A model generated the notes under the pieces. It had not been told where the DNA came from. It worked only from the letters and a program-made list of their open reading frames with translations, and did not search any database. A DNA stretch of 46,657 bases, from UHGV virus genome UHGV-0180138. One strand, written 5' to 3'. The translations under genes and the position numbers were made by a program. The stretch's first letter is position 1. Every line of letters begins with the position of its first letter. This document shows, one piece after another, positions 2,463 to 43,200 of the stretch. The DNA is from a virus.

Positions 2463-2585
2463 ATGGTTATTCGGGCGCTTCAATTCAAACTGGCGGTAGC
2501 GGAAATGCTTCACGATGCCGAAATGTGGAGCGCCGCGAATAAAGCCTTATACGTAGTGTTAACAGCGAAGGAGATTAAAGGGTGA
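2463..2585 (+). CDS. hypothetical small protein (40 aa)
   Basis: ATG preceded by GGAGGTG; stop overlaps GTG start of erf (GTGA); below ORF-track size cutoff. Confidence 0.3.
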   Translation: MVIRALQFKLAVAEMLHDAEMWSAANKALYVVLTAKEIKG

Positions 2586-3247
2586 AAACAGAGTTACATA
2601 AAAAACTATGGACGATTCAGCAAACGCTGAACGCGCCGAAGAATCAGCGTAATAATTTTGGCGGGTATAATTACAGGTCGGCGGAGGATATTTTAGAGGC
2701 GGTTAAACCACTGCTTCAAAATATCACGCTGACTGTTAGTGATGAAATTGTCCTGATCGGCAATCGCTATTATGTGAAAGCTACGGCGACGCTAAGCGAC
2801 GGTGAAGACGTAATAGCGGTAACTGCTTATGCCAGGGAGGAAGAAAGCAAGAAGGGTATGGATGCCAGCCAGCTAACAGGAGCAACATCAAGTTACGCGC
2901 GGAAATATGCTTTGAACGGTTTATTCTGCATAGATGATGCTCGCGATCCTGATACTGATGCTTACGCGAAGCAGACAGGCCAGCAGCCGCGACAACAGAA
3001 AAACCCACCAAAACAACAACCTAAGCAGCAAGGGCAACAACAAGGTCAGCAGCCGAAAGCGCCGCCAAATCCTGATGAAGTGTTGGCGCGTTTCTGTGAT
3101 GCGGCAGCGAAAGCGCCGGACGCTAACAAGTTGCGCGAGATCTTCGGCAAGTGCTGGAAGCTACTGCCTAAAGATTCAGAACAGCAACAGAAAGCGAAAG
3201 ACGTTTATGACATTCGCTTAAAAGAAATTAACGGGGAGATCAGTTAA
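2582..3247 (+). CDS. erf: Erf-family single-strand annealing protein
   Basis: 221 aa; GATSSYARKYALNGLF motif typical of Erf family; GTG start with AAGGAG SD; Gln/Pro-rich linker before C-terminal domain. Confidence 0.8.
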   Translation: MKTELHKKLWTIQQTLNAPKNQRNNFGGYNYRSAEDILEAVKPLLQNITLTVSDEIVLIGNRYYVKATATLSDGEDVIAVTAYAREEESKKGMDASQLTGATSSYARKYALNGLFCIDDARDPDTDAYAKQTGQQPRQQKNPPKQQPKQQGQQQGQQPKAPPNPDEVLARFCDAAAKAPDANKLREIFGKCWKLLPKDSEQQQKAKDVYDIRLKEINGEIS

Positions 3248-3654
3248 TGAGTTTAAATTCAATTACGCTGGGCGGGAATATCGGTAATGATATGGAGGTT
3301 CGCTACACGCAAAACGGAAAAGCGATTGGTAGTTTTCCGTTAGCTGTAACGAATGGCTACGGCGATAATAAGCGGACAATGTGGGTCACTTGCCTGGTAT
3401 TTGGCGAGCGTGCGGAAAAATTAGCGCCACATATCCGCAAGGGTGGGAAAATTGTTGTAAGCGGTCGCCTGGATGTTCGGCAATATGACCGGAACGACGG
3501 CACAAAAGGGACGGCGGTTGAAGTGGCGGTTAACGAATTCGAATTTATGAACGTTAACCAACAGGGCCAGCAGCAGAAAGCGCCACCGCCGCAGCAGAAT
3601 AATAACGGGAATAATCCGCCACCGATGGACTTCGATGACGATATCCCGTTCTGA
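3247..3654 (+). CDS. ssb: single-stranded DNA-binding protein
   Basis: 135 aa; OB-fold N-terminal region, Gln/Pro-rich linker and acidic tail DFDDDIPF diagnostic of SSB. Confidence 0.9.
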   Translation: MSLNSITLGGNIGNDMEVRYTQNGKAIGSFPLAVTNGYGDNKRTMWVTCLVFGERAEKLAPHIRKGGKIVVSGRLDVRQYDRNDGTKGTAVEVAVNEFEFMNVNQQGQQQKAPPPQQNNNGNNPPPMDFDDDIPF

Positions 3655-3669
3655 TTAAATAGGTTAGCG

Positions 3670-3948
3670 ATGGGTGATTATTTAAAAGCGCCACCGCCAC
3701 CACGAACAAAAGAGCAAGTATTAAAAGAAGCCCGTGATCAAATCGATCATGGGCTTTTTTTATGCGGCACGGCAGCGGATCGGATGGCAAAAAGATTTAG
3801 TGACCTGTACGCAAAGCAAATATGGTTCGACAACTGGCAGGCAAGTTTTTACCCACTACAGAAAGCTGATGATATGCATTGGCCTGAATATGTCGATCCA
3901 CGTATGCGCAAATATCGCGGGCGTATGGGCCAGGTTATTAACGATTAA
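3670..3948 (+). CDS. hypothetical protein
   Basis: 92-aa ORF in gene train. Confidence 0.5.
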   Translation: MGDYLKAPPPPRTKEQVLKEARDQIDHGLFLCGTAADRMAKRFSDLYAKQIWFDNWQASFYPLQKADDMHWPEYVDPRMRKYRGRMGQVIND

Positions 3949-3961
3949 TGAGGTGTTAATC

Positions 3962-4213
3962 ATGACAGCTACAACATTAAGCGAAAATAACGGTAGAGGT
4001 TTTCAGAGAACTGCGGAAAGCCTTGATGATAGTGATGTATTTGTTGATTTCGGCGGCGGCAACTATGAATTCGAAACGTCTGCGGGCTGGGTTGATAAAT
4101 GGCCTTTCCCTACTCGACAGGAATTAAGCGAACGTAAATCATTTGGCGAAGATGCCGAACGCCTGGCGAATAATAAATGGTTGGATAGATTTATTTCGGA
4201 GGCTGAAAAATGA
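3962..4213 (+). CDS. hypothetical protein
   Basis: Start moved to ATG 3962 (SD GAGGTG) within track ORF 3734-4213. Confidence 0.5.
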   Translation: MTATTLSENNGRGFQRTAESLDDSDVFVDFGGGNYEFETSAGWVDKWPFPTRQELSERKSFGEDAERLANNKWLDRFISEAEK

Positions 4214-4323
4214 ACATAATCAAAATAGCAGCGTTATCCGCTGGAGTTGCAATAGCTGTTGCTTATCTTGCGGCTTCTCTTTATATCACGGTAGCGATCA
4301 TAAAACTGATTACTAATATGTGA
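4210..4323 (+). CDS. small single-helix membrane peptide (37 aa)
   Basis: MNIIKIAALSAGVAIAVAYLAASLYITVAIIKLITNM; ATGA start/stop overlap with upstream gene. Confidence 0.4.
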   Translation: MNIIKIAALSAGVAIAVAYLAASLYITVAIIKLITNM

Positions 4324-9188: not shown

Positions 9189-9879
9189 AACGGCTTATTC
9201 AATGTTTGATGGATCTGGAATCATGCTTCTTGAGTATGCGAAGGCTGGTTATCAGTGCTATTGTTTTAATGCTGATGAGGGCAATCATGGTGAATATTTT
9301 ATTAAAATGAAACATAAAAATTTGCATTATGTGAATATATGGATTGATGAAAATTTTATTGATAACATCATCAAAATGGATATCCAGAAGCCTGATATTG
9401 TATTTGGCTTTCCAGACTGTACTATGTTTGCGCAGTCTGGTAGTAAACATGTTCGTGATAATAACGATGTTATGGTGGCGCTAAAAAATGCAATCATGGT
9501 TGAAAGTGTAGGTAATTATTTTGGTGTTCCGTGGATGGCTGAAAATCCTGTAGGAAGACTGTCAACATTATGGCGCAAGCCAGATTTTTATTTTAATCCG
9601 CGTGATTTCGGTAATTATCTTGATGAATCTGATGGATCGTTTCATCCAAAAATGCCGTTGAAGGATGGGTATACCAAAAAAACAGCTATTTGGCATGGCA
9701 ACGGATTTATTGAGCCTAAGCGCAATCCTTTAAGCGACAATGAAGGTGTGATGTTTTTTTGGGGTTGGCGATGGTTAGGAGGCAAATCAGCAAAGACAAA
9801 ACAGCTTCGTTCACTCACACCGCGCGGCTTTGCCCGTGCTGTATTCCTGGCTAACCATGACCGCGTTTTACCGGACTAA
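9160..9879 (+). CDS. short DNA cytosine-C5 methyltransferase-like protein
   Basis: 239 aa; motif I-like FDGSGIM, motif IV-like GFPDCTMFAQSG (cf. GFPCQ), motif VI-like ENPVG (cf. ENV); unusually short, no obvious target-recognition domain. Confidence 0.5.
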   Translation: MAIMKITANRTAYSMFDGSGIMLLEYAKAGYQCYCFNADEGNHGEYFIKMKHKNLHYVNIWIDENFIDNIIKMDIQKPDIVFGFPDCTMFAQSGSKHVRDNNDVMVALKNAIMVESVGNYFGVPWMAENPVGRLSTLWRKPDFYFNPRDFGNYLDESDGSFHPKMPLKDGYTKKTAIWHGNGFIEPKRNPLSDNEGVMFFWGWRWLGGKSAKTKQLRSLTPRGFARAVFLANHDRVLPD

Positions 9880-9880
9880 A

Positions 9881-9961
9881 GTTTACAAAATGGCGTCATT
9901 GCGTGATGCGGATCACATAATGGCGCTTTTTGCCTTGTTTTGGGGTATCCATTTTGTATAC
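9881..9961. promoter_or_regulatory. inverted pair of conserved motif (GTTTACAAAATGGCG at 9881-9895 plus; GTATACAAAATGGA at 9961-9948 minus)
   Basis: Direct reading; intergenic gap after methyltransferase gene. Confidence 0.5.
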
Positions 9962-13234: not shown

Positions 13235-13446
13235 AAAAAGCTGGCCTGTCAATTAACCGCGTATTGTGCGGCGACGAAAACGAGATCCGCATAGAAATTA
13301 AATTTAGCACAGGTAAAGAGATAATCCTTTACACGACACCTGAAAACCTGACGCTGGCACTTACTGGTAAATCTGAAACGCCGTGCGACGTCAGGTTACG
13401 CAATATTGAAATCAAGGAATTAAGGAAGGGTAAAAATGAAAAGTAA
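13231..13446 (+). CDS. hypothetical protein
   Basis: 71-aa ORF. Confidence 0.45.
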   Translation: MKKAGLSINRVLCGDENEIRIEIKFSTGKEIILYTTPENLTLALTGKSETPCDVRLRNIEIKELRKGKNEK

Positions 13447-13654
13447 CCGTAAACGCCTGGTAAGGGCGTACGATAAAGCATTAAAGGCTTTTGATGACCT
13501 GCGACACAATAAGCGCCAGCGCCGCAAGTGGGCGCGAATGCTTGTTAATGAATGGCATTATCCTGATGCTGCCTTGATAGAAGGCGCACCGCCATTTACA
13601 CAGGAGCAAGCCGACGAAGTGGCTAACGATAACGTTTACTATATGATGTGGTGA
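13436..13654 (+). CDS. hypothetical protein, paralog A of tandem pair
   Basis: MKSNRKRLVRAYDKAL...DNVYYMMW; first 17 nt identical to next gene. Confidence 0.55.
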   Translation: MKSNRKRLVRAYDKALKAFDDLRHNKRQRRKWARMLVNEWHYPDAALIEGAPPFTQEQADEVANDNVYYMMW

Positions 13655-13658
13655 CAAT

Positions 13659-13895
13659 ATGAAAAGTAACCGTAAGCGCATGATAAGAGCATATGATAGA
13701 GCGTTAATCGAATTTAACGAACTATCACGCAGTAAGCGCCGCCGCAGACAATTCGCGCGACTTCTTTTTCATGTATGGCACGACGCTGATTTCTTTTTTG
13801 ATGCCAGACATATAACACAGGAAGATGCGGATAATATAGCTTACGATAACGTTTACTACATATTAAGAAGGTGGGAATATGAAAATAATCATTGA
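13659..13895 (+). CDS. hypothetical protein, paralog B of tandem pair
   Basis: MKSNRKRMIRAYDRAL...DNVYYILRRW. Confidence 0.55.
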   Translation: MKSNRKRMIRAYDRALIEFNELSRSKRRRRQFARLLFHVWHDADFFFDARHITQEDADNIAYDNVYYILRRWEYENNH

Positions 13896-16623: not shown

Positions 16624-16641
16624 ATGTGATCTACCTCGCAA

Positions 16642-36725: not shown

Positions 36726-36757
36726 CATTTTTCGCGTAGAAGCGCGTAAAGATATAT
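36726..36757 (+). promoter_or_regulatory. second copy of conserved element (CATTTTTCGCGTAGAAGCGCGTAAAGATATAT) upstream of tail gene M
   Basis: 27 of 31 positions identical with 23859-23889. Confidence 0.45.
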
Positions 36758-36782
36758 ACAAAGTGTAACTTATGGGGGTTTT

Positions 36783-40273: not shown

Positions 40274-43200
40274 ATGAGTAGCGGCGGCGGCAAAGCCAAA
40301 ACACCAACATTATTGAACGATAACCTGTATCATAAACAGTTTTATCGTGTTTTAGATATTCTCAGCGAAGGGCCGATATACGGTCCGGTAAACCAGAAAG
40401 CGCCACTGAATGACGTGATGCTTAATGACACGCCTGTTACTGACGCAAACGGGAATACATCAATCCCGGGGATTAGTATAGCCTGGCGCAACGGCACGGC
40501 TGATCAATCTCCGATTAATGGTTTTAATGCCATCGAGTCAACCGTTATTGTCAACGCAAAGGTAACTCACGACACGCCAATAATCAGGACTGTTTCAGAT
40601 CCAAACGTTACCCGCGTCAGGTTGAATCTTGGTGTTGATGCTCTCGTTCAATCAGATAATAAGGGCAACCAATATAATACATCTGTCATGTTGATGGTGG
40701 ATGTTAAACCGTCATCATCTTCTACGTGGTCGCTGGTTAAAGATATACACATTGGTCCTGGTAAACAAAGCGGTGAATATCTGGAAGCTCACATCATTAA
40801 AGCGCCGGATGAAAAACCGTTTGATATTCGCGTTCGTCGCGTAACACCAGACAGCAACAGTGATCTATTGCAGAATGATACGCGGTGGAGTAGCTACAGC
40901 GAAATCATAGACGATAATCTGTCTTATCCTCATACCGCTGTAGCTGGCGCCGTAATTGACCATGATCAGTATACTGATACGCCTACCCGCACCTATCACC
41001 TTCGTGGCCTGATTGTTGATGTGCCTGACAACTACAACCCTGAAACGCGCACATATTCAGGTTTATGGCTTGGTGGATTTAAAAAGGCGTATACCAATAA
41101 CCCTGCATGGCTTTTCCGGTATCTGGTTAAAAACGAGCGCTTTGGGCTTGCTCGACATGCTGGTTACATTGATGTTGATGATGGCGCTTTGTACGTGCTT
41201 TCTCAATACTGCGATCAGTTGGTTGATGATGGCTATGGTGGCCTTGAACCTCGCATGACGCTTAACGCTTACATTACAGAGCAAATGAGCGCCCGCGATT
41301 TACTGGACAATATCGCCGGGATGTTCCGAGGCATCGCGTTATGGGACGGACAACGCCTTACCGTGATGATTGATGCGCCACAAGACCCGATCGCCACCAT
41401 CACAAACGCAAACGTCGTTGATGGTGCGTTCACTCGTTCAAGTATCGCCCGAGCAGAATGCTACAACGCCGTGATTGTATCATGGACTGACCCGGAAAAC
41501 GGCTGGGAGCAATCAAAAGAGTATGTGGCAGATGATGAGCTAATCGCCCGTGATGGTTATAACGAAACCACGTTGGAGGCGTTCGGGTGCACTTCACGCG
41601 GGCAAGCGCACCGCGCTGGTAAATGGCTGATAGAAACAGCAAAACGCGAGCCGTCAAAATTCACGTTTAAAATGGCCCGTGATGCGATTCACTTTACGCC
41701 AGGGGATATAATCGAGATCCTCGACAATAACCGCGCAGGCGCGCGTTTAGGCGGTCGTATCGTGGCGAACAATGGGAAAGTGATAACGGTCGATAAAGTC
41801 GATTCAGAATACATTGCAGCAGGCGACACCATCAGTTTACTTGATGGCGATGGCAAATTTAAAAAACATCAGATCACTGGTGTTAACGGGAACAAAATCA
41901 CACTGGCAGCAGCCCCGGCATGGATTCGGAACGGTACTGTTTTTGCTGTATCAACCGAATCTGCAAAACCCGTTTTATGTCGAATCATCAGCGTAGCAGA
42001 AACTGAAAACAACAGCGTGTACACCATCGAAGCAGCGCAACATGACCCGAAAAAACAAGCAGTAGTCGATGAAGGCGCTATATTTGAAATCAACAACGAC
42101 ACGCTTAATCACTTCCGCGTGCCGAGCATTGAAAATCTGAAGGTGGTAAACATTGGATCTGAAACGGTTCAATGCCGCGCAACATGGGAGACACAGACAA
42201 CAACACATCGCATGACCTTTGAGATCCGCATATATAACACAGATGGTGCGGTTGTTAAAAGCTACGAAACAACGAAATACAGTTATGATTTTTATGGCAT
42301 CGACGCTGGCGCGTATTCGTTAGGCGTTCGCGGAAGAAATGATACTGGCATGAAGGGCGCTGAAAGTATTGTTGATCTTGTTATTGGTGCGCCAGCCTCG
42401 CCAATAGGCGTTAACTGGGTTCCAGGTGTATTTCAGGCTACAGTGTACCCGATAAGCAAAACAACGCTAACAACTGATACAGCGTATGAGTTCTACTATG
42501 CAGGGAAAAACCAGATTACAGATCCTGCAAAAATAACCACGTCTGCGCAGTTTACCGGGCGCGGGTATCAGTGGACGTTCGGTGGAATGAACACGGGCCA
42601 TACTTATTACGTTTATGTGCGCACGCGCAATGCCTTTGGCGTGTCAGACTTCGTTGAGGCGTCAGGTAAGCCAACTGAAAACTTCGATGAAATCAGCGAC
42701 TATGTCACCAAAGACGTGATGAACTCAGAGCAATTTAAGGAATTGGTAAGTGATATTAAGGATCTTGGTGATCGCACTGATATTATAGAAAGCGCAACCG
42801 CCGACCTTAAAACAGCAACCGCCGACCTTAAAACAGCTACAGATGGCCTTAAAACTGATACAGATACACTTAAAAAAGACACCGAAGACCTTTATAAAAA
42901 AGTCGAAGAAAACGCCGATGGAATAGGCAAACATGAGGTAAGAATAGACTCATTAGAGGTATCAAACGAAAACGTTAATAACGAACTGGCACAGACAAAA
43001 GCAAGTTTACAAAACGCTTCGCTTGCTCTGATCAACAACTCGCTTGCTCAAACTAACACGCGGGTTACTCTTACCGCTCAATATAAGAAAGGTCGCAACG
43101 AAACAAAGGCACAGATTGACCGTATCGACAACGTTATCGCAGATGAGAAAAAATCGACAGCGGAATCACTGGAAACCATCACAGCAGAAATAAGCGCGAT

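Follow-up and report, generated by a model that had tools for sequence, protein, structure and literature searches.

In the early-left (PL-type) operon of a mEp021-like temperate phage or prophage, the adjacent genes for the recombination proteins Erf and SSB encode linkers with a similar Gln/Pro-rich segment, which raises the question of how the same few residues came to lie in both and whether the two proteins make common use of them. The original prediction took the likeness to suggest either sequence exchange between the genes or a shared interaction segment. In the window, by which we mean the whole stretch of 46,657 nucleotides analysed (UHGV-0180138), the genes of the operon region all lie on the plus strand: a cI-like repressor (995-1642), an N-like antiterminator (2142-2432), a kil-like ORF (2463-2585), erf (2582-3247), ssb (3247-3654) and an abc2-like anti-RecBCD gene (3670-3948). 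The stop codon of erf overlaps the start codon of ssb in the sequence TAATG at 3245-3249.

Erf has 221 residues, begins at a GTG codon and consists of a predicted annealing domain of the ERF/Rad52-like type, followed by a disordered linker and a C-terminal domain of three helices. It matches PF04404 (ERF) over residues 7-150 with an E-value of 6e-42 and phrog_155 with an E-value of 6e-48, and carries the conserved ERF core (SSYARKYA and IDD.KD.D), with the invariant columns common to 39 diverse Erfs. By these criteria it is a predicted single-strand annealing protein of the ERF superfamily (PF04404); a search of the PDB sequences with Erf gave no matches. SSB, of 135 residues, has an OB fold at residues 3-101 (PF00436, E=1.7e-23; also phrog_44), a short low-complexity linker at residues 102-126 and an acidic tip, MDFDDDIPF, with DFDDDIPF read from the sequence as its C-terminus, and is accordingly classed as an SSB of the bacterial type (PF00436), in which a disordered linker leads to an acidic tip. 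The product of the abc2-like gene is a predicted homologue of P22 Abc2 through its match to phrog_656 (E=2.3e-31); searches of Pfam and of the PDB sequences with it gave no match.

The linker segments that had been said to resemble each other are residues 134-164 of Erf, QQPRQQKNPPKQQPKQQGQQQGQQPKAPPNP, encoded at 2981-3073, and residues 104-126 of SSB, NQQGQQQKAPPPQQNNNGNNPPP, encoded at 3556-3624. The likeness holds up at the DNA level. The top match between the genes, which is ungapped and in frame in both, pairs 3038-3066 (CAACAAGGTCAGCAGCCGAAAGCGCCGCC) with 3559-3587 (CAACAGGGCCAGCAGCAGAAAGCGCCACC) and is identical at 25 of 29 nucleotides (86%) and nine of ten residues, QQGQQPKAPP in Erf against QQGQQQKAPP in SSB, giving a common block QQGQQ[P/Q]KAPP. 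The related DNA that had been proposed, cagcagc.gaaagcgccgcc, is found exactly in erf, while ssb has one further mismatch to it (gccAcc). Within this match lies a 20-nucleotide core, present as CAGCAGCCGAAAGCGCCGCC (QQPKAPP) at 3047-3066 in erf and as CAGCAGCAGAAAGCGCCACC (QQQKAPP) at 3568-3587 in ssb, 521 nucleotides downstream and likewise in frame. Each copy differs at one position from the consensus of the clade, CAGCAGCAGAAAGCGCCGCC, and so is slightly degraded.

Both blocks lie in flexible tethers. In an AlphaFold model of Erf built from an alignment of 40 sequences, residues 1-118 form a confident N-terminal domain (pLDDT >90), the Gln/Pro/Lys-rich interdomain linker of residues 121-163 (2942-3070) has pLDDT values of 47-65 and is predicted to be disordered, in agreement with the flexibility that had been expected of it, and residues 164-216 (3071-3244) form the three-helix C-terminal domain with pLDDT values of 95-98. 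As to a Rad52-like beta-beta-beta-alpha annealase fold, Foldseek returned weak matches of the model to RAD52 and Mgm101, with E-values from 5e-3 to 0.3 and TM scores of 0.23-0.30. Just upstream of the C-terminal domain, Pro161 of the motif NPDEV is nearly invariant among distant Erfs. The SSB linker, NVNQQGQQQKAPPPQQNNNGNNPPP, is encoded at 3550-3624. With the domain limits taken from the Erf model, and from the end of the Pfam OB match at residue 101 and the last nine residues as the tip of SSB, both blocks lie in tethers just upstream of a C-terminal module.

Is the match more than two Gln-rich stretches would give by chance? Its best ungapped score, 38, was reached in none of 1000 shuffles of codons within the whole genes and in 2 of 5000 shuffles confined to the two linkers, which preserve their richness in Gln codons. 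The similarity is therefore greater than expected for runs of Gln codons. However, the whole 46.6-kb window contains four direct repeats of at least 26 nucleotides with at least 85% identity, of which the 29-nucleotide repeat is one, so the window alone is only suggestive. The codons of the block are also no more alike than the protein identity predicts: 7 of 13 are identical between the window erf and the commonest two-copy ssb allele of its relatives, and 5 of 9 between erf and its own ssb (P=0.31 for both), while the corresponding figure within L006, the closest relative, is 6 of 13 (P=0.52). The window copy would therefore be old or diverged. By itself the window gives no sign of DNA copying, and the evidence comes mainly from its relatives, which on comparison of their sequences show the match between erf and ssb to be one of real homology.

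These window results are also what would be seen if the two low-complexity linkers had converged independently, through slippage of CAG/CAA-GGN units, chance and a common mutational bias, with no transfer of DNA. The chance-level codon match and the place of the 29-nucleotide repeat merely among the top four in the window both agree with this, as does the composition of the linkers family-wide, Erf linkers being rich in Gln, Pro, Lys and Ala and SSB linkers in Gln, Gly, Pro and Asn. DNA coding for QQGQQQGQQ is common in viral contigs, with more than 120 sites. Against it stands the result of the linker-only codon shuffles, and the relatives provide further evidence that makes convergence unlikely.

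The closest records to the window are Escherichia phage MagusPhagus (91% nucleotide identity) and phages mEp010, mEp044, mEp013, mEp554, mEp515 and mEp021, with 34 further matches in E. coli prophages, headed by one in O157:H7 strain LSU61 at 96%. Loci from 5 phages and 16 prophages were retrieved for comparison of the linkers. In some of these relatives inserted genes for HNH-type endonucleases separate erf from ssb or ssb from abc2 (2308-2916 in mEp013, L003; 2730-3293 in mEp554, L004; 1451-1972 in L018; also in L019 and L020). In mEp013, mEp554, L018 and L019 the ssb ORF extends 15-16 residues past DDDIPF (...GLQYGK.RIYAL), which would bury the Phe with which the SSB tip normally ends.

Among some 40 phages of the mEp021-like group and prophages of E. 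coli, most of the genomes examined contain, in the linkers of both erf and ssb, the exact 20-nucleotide direct repeat CAGCAGCAGAAAGCGCCGCC, coding for QQQKAPP. Six of its seven codons are the same in the two genes, for which we estimate P at about 0.02 given the identity of the proteins, so that for this core the DNA is, weakly, more alike than the protein requires. The exact identity extends over the synonymous sites of the Lys, Ala and Pro codons in most relatives examined, which argues against convergence. The commonest Erf linker in the relatives ends ...PKQQPQQQKAPPNPDEVL, and their SSB linkers follow the pattern NVN-QQGQ(QQGQ)0-2-QQKAPP[P/Q]QQ.... Each linker differs in length among the genomes by multiples of three nucleotides: that of Erf by -2, 0, +4 or +8 residues in its 3' part, just 5' of KAPPNP, and that of SSB in the number of its QQGQ units, of which the window has one and relatives two or three. 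The same pattern was seen in 120 representatives of Erf clusters. Such in-frame polymorphism indicates that the tracts are prone to slippage.

When 2.9 million viral contigs were scanned, DNA coding for QQQKAPP was present at 123 sites, 27 of them in Erf, 42 in SSB and 54 unrelated. The Erf and SSB ORFs all belong to the clade of the window, most having 84% identity or more with the window proteins and three short fragments less. No Erf or SSB beyond this clade was found to have QQQKAPP in these contigs, which again counts against repeated independent origins, and on this sequence survey the block is a trait of one clade and not of the Erf or SSB families.

A longer Erf allele takes the resemblance to the SSB linker further. 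In the window a '+8' block at 3023-3046, AAG CAG CAA GGG CAA CAA CAA GGT (KQQGQQQG), precedes the core. It is found in a minority of Erf alleles; of the 20 fetched relatives in which the Erf linker was read, 19 have no counterpart, and L006 carries it. The block resembles the NQQGQQQG of SSB linkers in relatives, and the window Erf linker that contains it, KQQGQQQGQQPKAPP, matches the two-copy SSB alleles, NQQGQQQGQQQKAPP, at 13 of 15 residues, though with a DNA identity of only 80-84%. To arise by convergence it would require new Gly codons in an otherwise Gly-free part of the Erf linker, with two substitutions per codon. A tandem duplication within erf was considered as the source of the window +8 block and rejected, the 24-nucleotide halves being identical by hand count at just 14 of 24 positions.

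The +8 allele occurs also on a second Erf background, with 90% amino acid identity to the window Erf (P0003, P0008, P0030 and P0047; loci L127, L319 and L320). At the DNA level three distinct +8 erf tracts were seen, those of the window, L006 and L127. The tract of L127 and L320, AAG CAA CAA GGC CAG CAA CAA GGC CAG CAG AAA AAA GCG CCA CCA, is identical to the resident ssb at 40 of 45 nucleotides, and at 26 of 27 over QQGQQQGQQ. Where the residues are the same, 11 of 13 codons are identical, compared with 5.6 expected (P=0.002). Its first Pro codon is CCA, as in the resident ssb; the other erf alleles seen use CCG, except for CCT in L021. The erf tract of L127 differs from its own ssb at 5 of 45 nucleotides and from the orthologous erf tract of the window at 8 of 45. 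Such a match at the codon level, including a Pro codon used by no other erf allele seen, is hard to obtain by convergence of the proteins and points to DNA copying between the genes, by ectopic gene conversion or template switching. In L127 the copying would appear to have run from ssb to erf, since it is the ssb sequence that is conserved in the clade. Slippage has been at work too, consistent with part of what convergence supposes: the +8 block of L127 itself contains a 12-nucleotide tandem duplication, (CAA CAA GGC CAG)x2. In P0121, the nearest outgroup Erf (51% identity), the linker reads ...QQQGQQTKNLSPAEV at the equivalent place, so a linker of the QQGQQ type could be ancestral in Erf.

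It would seem probable, then, that the shared block arose by shared DNA ancestry and ectopic exchange between two disordered tethers, with no demonstrated function of its own. The data show a similarity greater than composition gives, conserved in the clade and confined to it, together with codon-level identity in one lineage and predicted disorder; the mechanism, the direction (with ssb as donor at least in L127) and the neutrality of the process are what we infer. One of these tethers links the putatively Rad52-like annealing domain of Erf to its small three-helix C-terminal domain, and the other the OB fold of SSB to its acidic DFDDDIPF tip. QQ(G)QQxKAPP would have originated in the ancestor of the mEp021-like clade as a direct repeat, short and in frame, with its copies some 520 bp apart. 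Ectopic exchange at short homology between the two tracts rich in CAG and CAA, through gene conversion or template switching and plausibly with the help of the annealase of the phage itself, would since have made the copies partly uniform again. Erf-type recombinases are efficient on short, diverged homology (PMC3945230), and some 20 nucleotides common to two same-strand tracts about 520 bp apart may be enough for template switching or annealase-assisted exchange. Conversion tracts of about 45 nucleotides would remain in frame, replication slippage would additionally alter copy number, and the +8 Erf allele of the window would be a diverged product of such an exchange. Since length and composition are all that a tether requires, the copied block may be tolerated.

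Unequal exchange between the tracts would be predicted to give deletions and duplications, but there were no matches in the viral contigs to chimeras joining the N-terminal domain of Erf to the tail of SSB, or the OB fold of SSB to the C-terminal domain of Erf, and this counts against exchange. None would be expected to be seen, however, because the products would lack the C-terminal domain of Erf and the OB fold of SSB. The nucleotide diversity of the core is 0.05-0.07 (0.064 around the Erf core) compared with about 0.17 in the flanking linker, in both genes, a difference that would also fit functional constraint. Elsewhere in erf, the distal half of the C-terminal domain (3122-3241) exists in the relatives as two divergent allele classes, ...KDSEQQQKAKDVYDIRLKE.NGEI. 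and ...EGSEHRIKAKDVYDIRVAELNGEMG, with a diversity of 0.16-0.19 compared with 0.05 just upstream, which places a mosaic joint within the Erf C-terminal domain and not at the linker.

Another way to account for the repeated core is that it acts as DNA or RNA, its GC-rich sequence (AAAGCGCC...) being a cis-acting site within the coding sequence, such as an antisense terminator or a site of protein binding or recombination. The window contains 17 occurrences of the octamer AAAGCGCC/GGCGCTTT, where dinucleotide shuffles predict 2.5 and shuffles of codons within genes 5.0, none of 500 of the latter reaching 17, and both copies of the core are associated with weak terminator-like hairpins on the minus strand (3068-3046 and 3596-3581), a similar one having been called by ARNold in the erf linker of mEp010. 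The octamer was, however, chosen after the fact. Moreover, its other 13 copies have no context in common and are spread over both strands and every frame, and the hairpins have four and three G-C pairs and poor T tails; they probably form because the KAPP codons adjoin the complement of Gln codons. A cis-acting site is therefore a very improbable explanation, further weakened by the copy in abc2, which is not conserved at the DNA level in the relatives.

This copy is an exact 14-nucleotide repeat, AAAGCGCCACCGCC, coding for KAPPPP, shared between the SSB linker (3577-3590) and the 5' end of abc2 (3685-3698; MGDYLKAPPPPRTKEQ). The relatives have K[A/T/P]PPPP in abc2 with other codons, and with neither the residue nor the DNA conserved, abc2 was rejected as a third copy; the variability suggests that its KAPPPP is probably a coincidence and not part of the shared block. 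The paper on the structure of P22 Abc2 gives the N-terminal Pro run no role (PMC9836394). KAPP is thus present in three adjacent genes, and there is a KAPD at 3110, in the part of erf that encodes the C-terminal domain. The octamer sites include those at 3056, 3110, 3577, 3685, 40397 and 40799, the first four falling within 640 nucleotides at erf-ssb-abc2. Other repeats in the window are a 26-nucleotide motif in three copies of 77-85% identity (907-932, 9879-9904 and 16641-16666), a pair of 34 nucleotides at 85% (23859-23892 and 36727-36760), a pair of 135 nucleotides at 72% spaced 223 nucleotides apart (13433-13567 and 13656-13790) and three 74-nucleotide copies at 43206-43741, inside a large ORF (40274-44809).

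The second half of the original prediction, that the linkers are a shared interaction segment, would have the block in Erf let the protein join the linker-mediated contacts of SSB, whether by linker-driven SSB-SSB cooperativity, by condensates on ssDNA or by binding of a common partner, with selection and not neutral copying keeping it in both. In keeping with this, the core varies less in both genes than the linker around it, KAPPNP is nearly invariant across the 120 Erf cluster representatives, and the block has an analogous position in the two proteins, just upstream of a C-terminal partner-binding module. Conservation within a clade at 82-96% nucleotide identity is nevertheless weak evidence of constraint, and the two linkers do not behave as a matched pair. 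In mEp021 SSB has an unrelated linker and the tip DQDIPF, in mEp554 the SSB linker has GQRQPP and in mEp010 HKAQP, and yet all three phages retain the K-A-P-P-N-P of Erf. Nor do the alleles co-vary, the +8 Erf being combined with a one-copy SSB in the window and a two-copy SSB in L006.

The SSB linker also has no PxxP motif, NVNQQGQQQKAPPPQQNNNGNNPPP containing no pair of Pro residues at i and i+3. Erf does have such motifs, PKAP and PPNP. The PxxP model of SSB-linker interactions is itself disputed (PMC7145534, PMC10164576). Published contacts between annealases and SSB lie in the last nine or so residues of SSB (PMC11611040, PMC5928155), and the linker of E. coli SSB, with its PxxP motifs, is dispensable for partner binding (PMC7145534, PMC10164576); both findings argue against contacts through the linker.

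Other lineages give the interaction a few points in its favour. In L315, which represents a second, enterobacterial prophage lineage (erf 3001-3726, ssb 3730-4239; Erf 51% identical, with an E. coli-like SSB of 169 residues), the linkers of Erf (QNGQQQRNGNQQRNGGQQQ...) and SSB (...QGQQNGQQRQQRQQGG) have CAGAACGGCCAGCAGC in common, a likeness of the form QNGQQ(Q)R with 16 nucleotides exact (P=0.037 by codon shuffling). The Erf homologue P0141 (1389-2126 of L314, a metagenome contig) ends in an SSB-type tip, ...EDDELPFV (...TFMNIPEGEDDELPFV), resembling the acidic tips that phage SSBs have in L184 and L204; its 3.7-kb contig contains no ssb gene. At the DNA level the P-values obtained by codon shuffling in other lineages lean mildly towards low values, 3 of 25 being below 0.05. 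However, across 24 other lineages with both Erf and SSB, linkers from the same genome had a mean BLOSUM score of 22.7 compared with 21.7±1.1 for permuted pairs, with no significant excess (P=0.19), and a general likeness of Erf and SSB linkers was rejected. A sequence-specific shared interaction role for the block is unsupported, and selection for contacts through it is improbable. A more particular form of the idea, which we consider a long shot, is that the Erf tether is kept like the SSB linker so that, by contacts between the linkers, Erf rings assemble or condense together with ssDNA coated by SSB, the match being maintained by repeated gene conversion from ssb. Were it true, linker matching would be a second route of recruitment besides the SSB tip, and the likeness in L315 and the tip of P0141 would be further faces of a general strategy in which annealases borrow parts of the SSB tail.

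Of the two suggestions originally made, then, sequence exchange is supported by the 20-nucleotide repeat in the relatives and the codons of L127 and L320, while the interaction segment is not. The block is most likely a few dozen copied bases, a real but minor and clade-specific evolutionary curiosity with no sign of special function. If exchange between the tethers is the right explanation, the locus is a small, clean case in which two neighbouring but unrelated genes have had DNA copied in frame between the parts that encode their disordered linkers, in a phage with a short-homology annealase of its own, and it would illustrate that low-complexity tethers evolve through slippage and ectopic exchange and that shared linker motifs in partner proteins need not imply an interaction. 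It would leave the understanding of Erf or SSB function unchanged; only linker matching as a means of recruitment would bear on the access of annealases to SSB-coated DNA and on how annealase/SSB pairs are designed for recombineering.

The Erf of phage P22 was reportedly found, by Poteete and colleagues in the 1980s, to consist of a ring-forming, DNA-binding N-terminal domain, a protease-sensitive hinge and a C-terminal domain. The modelled layout of the window Erf is similar, with its confident N-terminal domain, low-confidence residues 121-163 and three-helix C-terminal domain. Unlike in P22, the hinge has a block that resembles an SSB linker, and the gene adjoins a phage ssb and not abc1; in most Erf lineages the hinge sequence is unrelated. 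The phage SSB, for its part, resembles that of E. coli (PMC7145534, PMC10164576) in having an OB fold, a low-complexity linker of Gln, Pro, Gly and Asn and the identical tip DFDDDIPF, but its linker is about 25 residues long compared with 56, lacks a PxxP motif and includes QQGQQQKAPP, a block absent from the host SSB and shared with the adjacent annealase gene. HK620 has the same gene order of recombinase, ssb and abc2. As with Redbeta/RecT and Sak4, a phage annealase with an N-terminal domain, a linker and a C-terminal domain works with an SSB, although the contact documented in those systems is between the annealase and the last 6-9 residues of SSB, with no role of the linker or shared linker sequence reported (PMC11611040, PMC5928155). 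The closest parallel to the exchange itself is phage mosaicism through Rad52-like recombinases, an Erf among them, which likewise proceeds on short or diverged homology (PMC3945230); here, by contrast, the exchange would be ectopic, between two non-homologous genes of one genome, over no more than 45 nucleotides and in frame in both.
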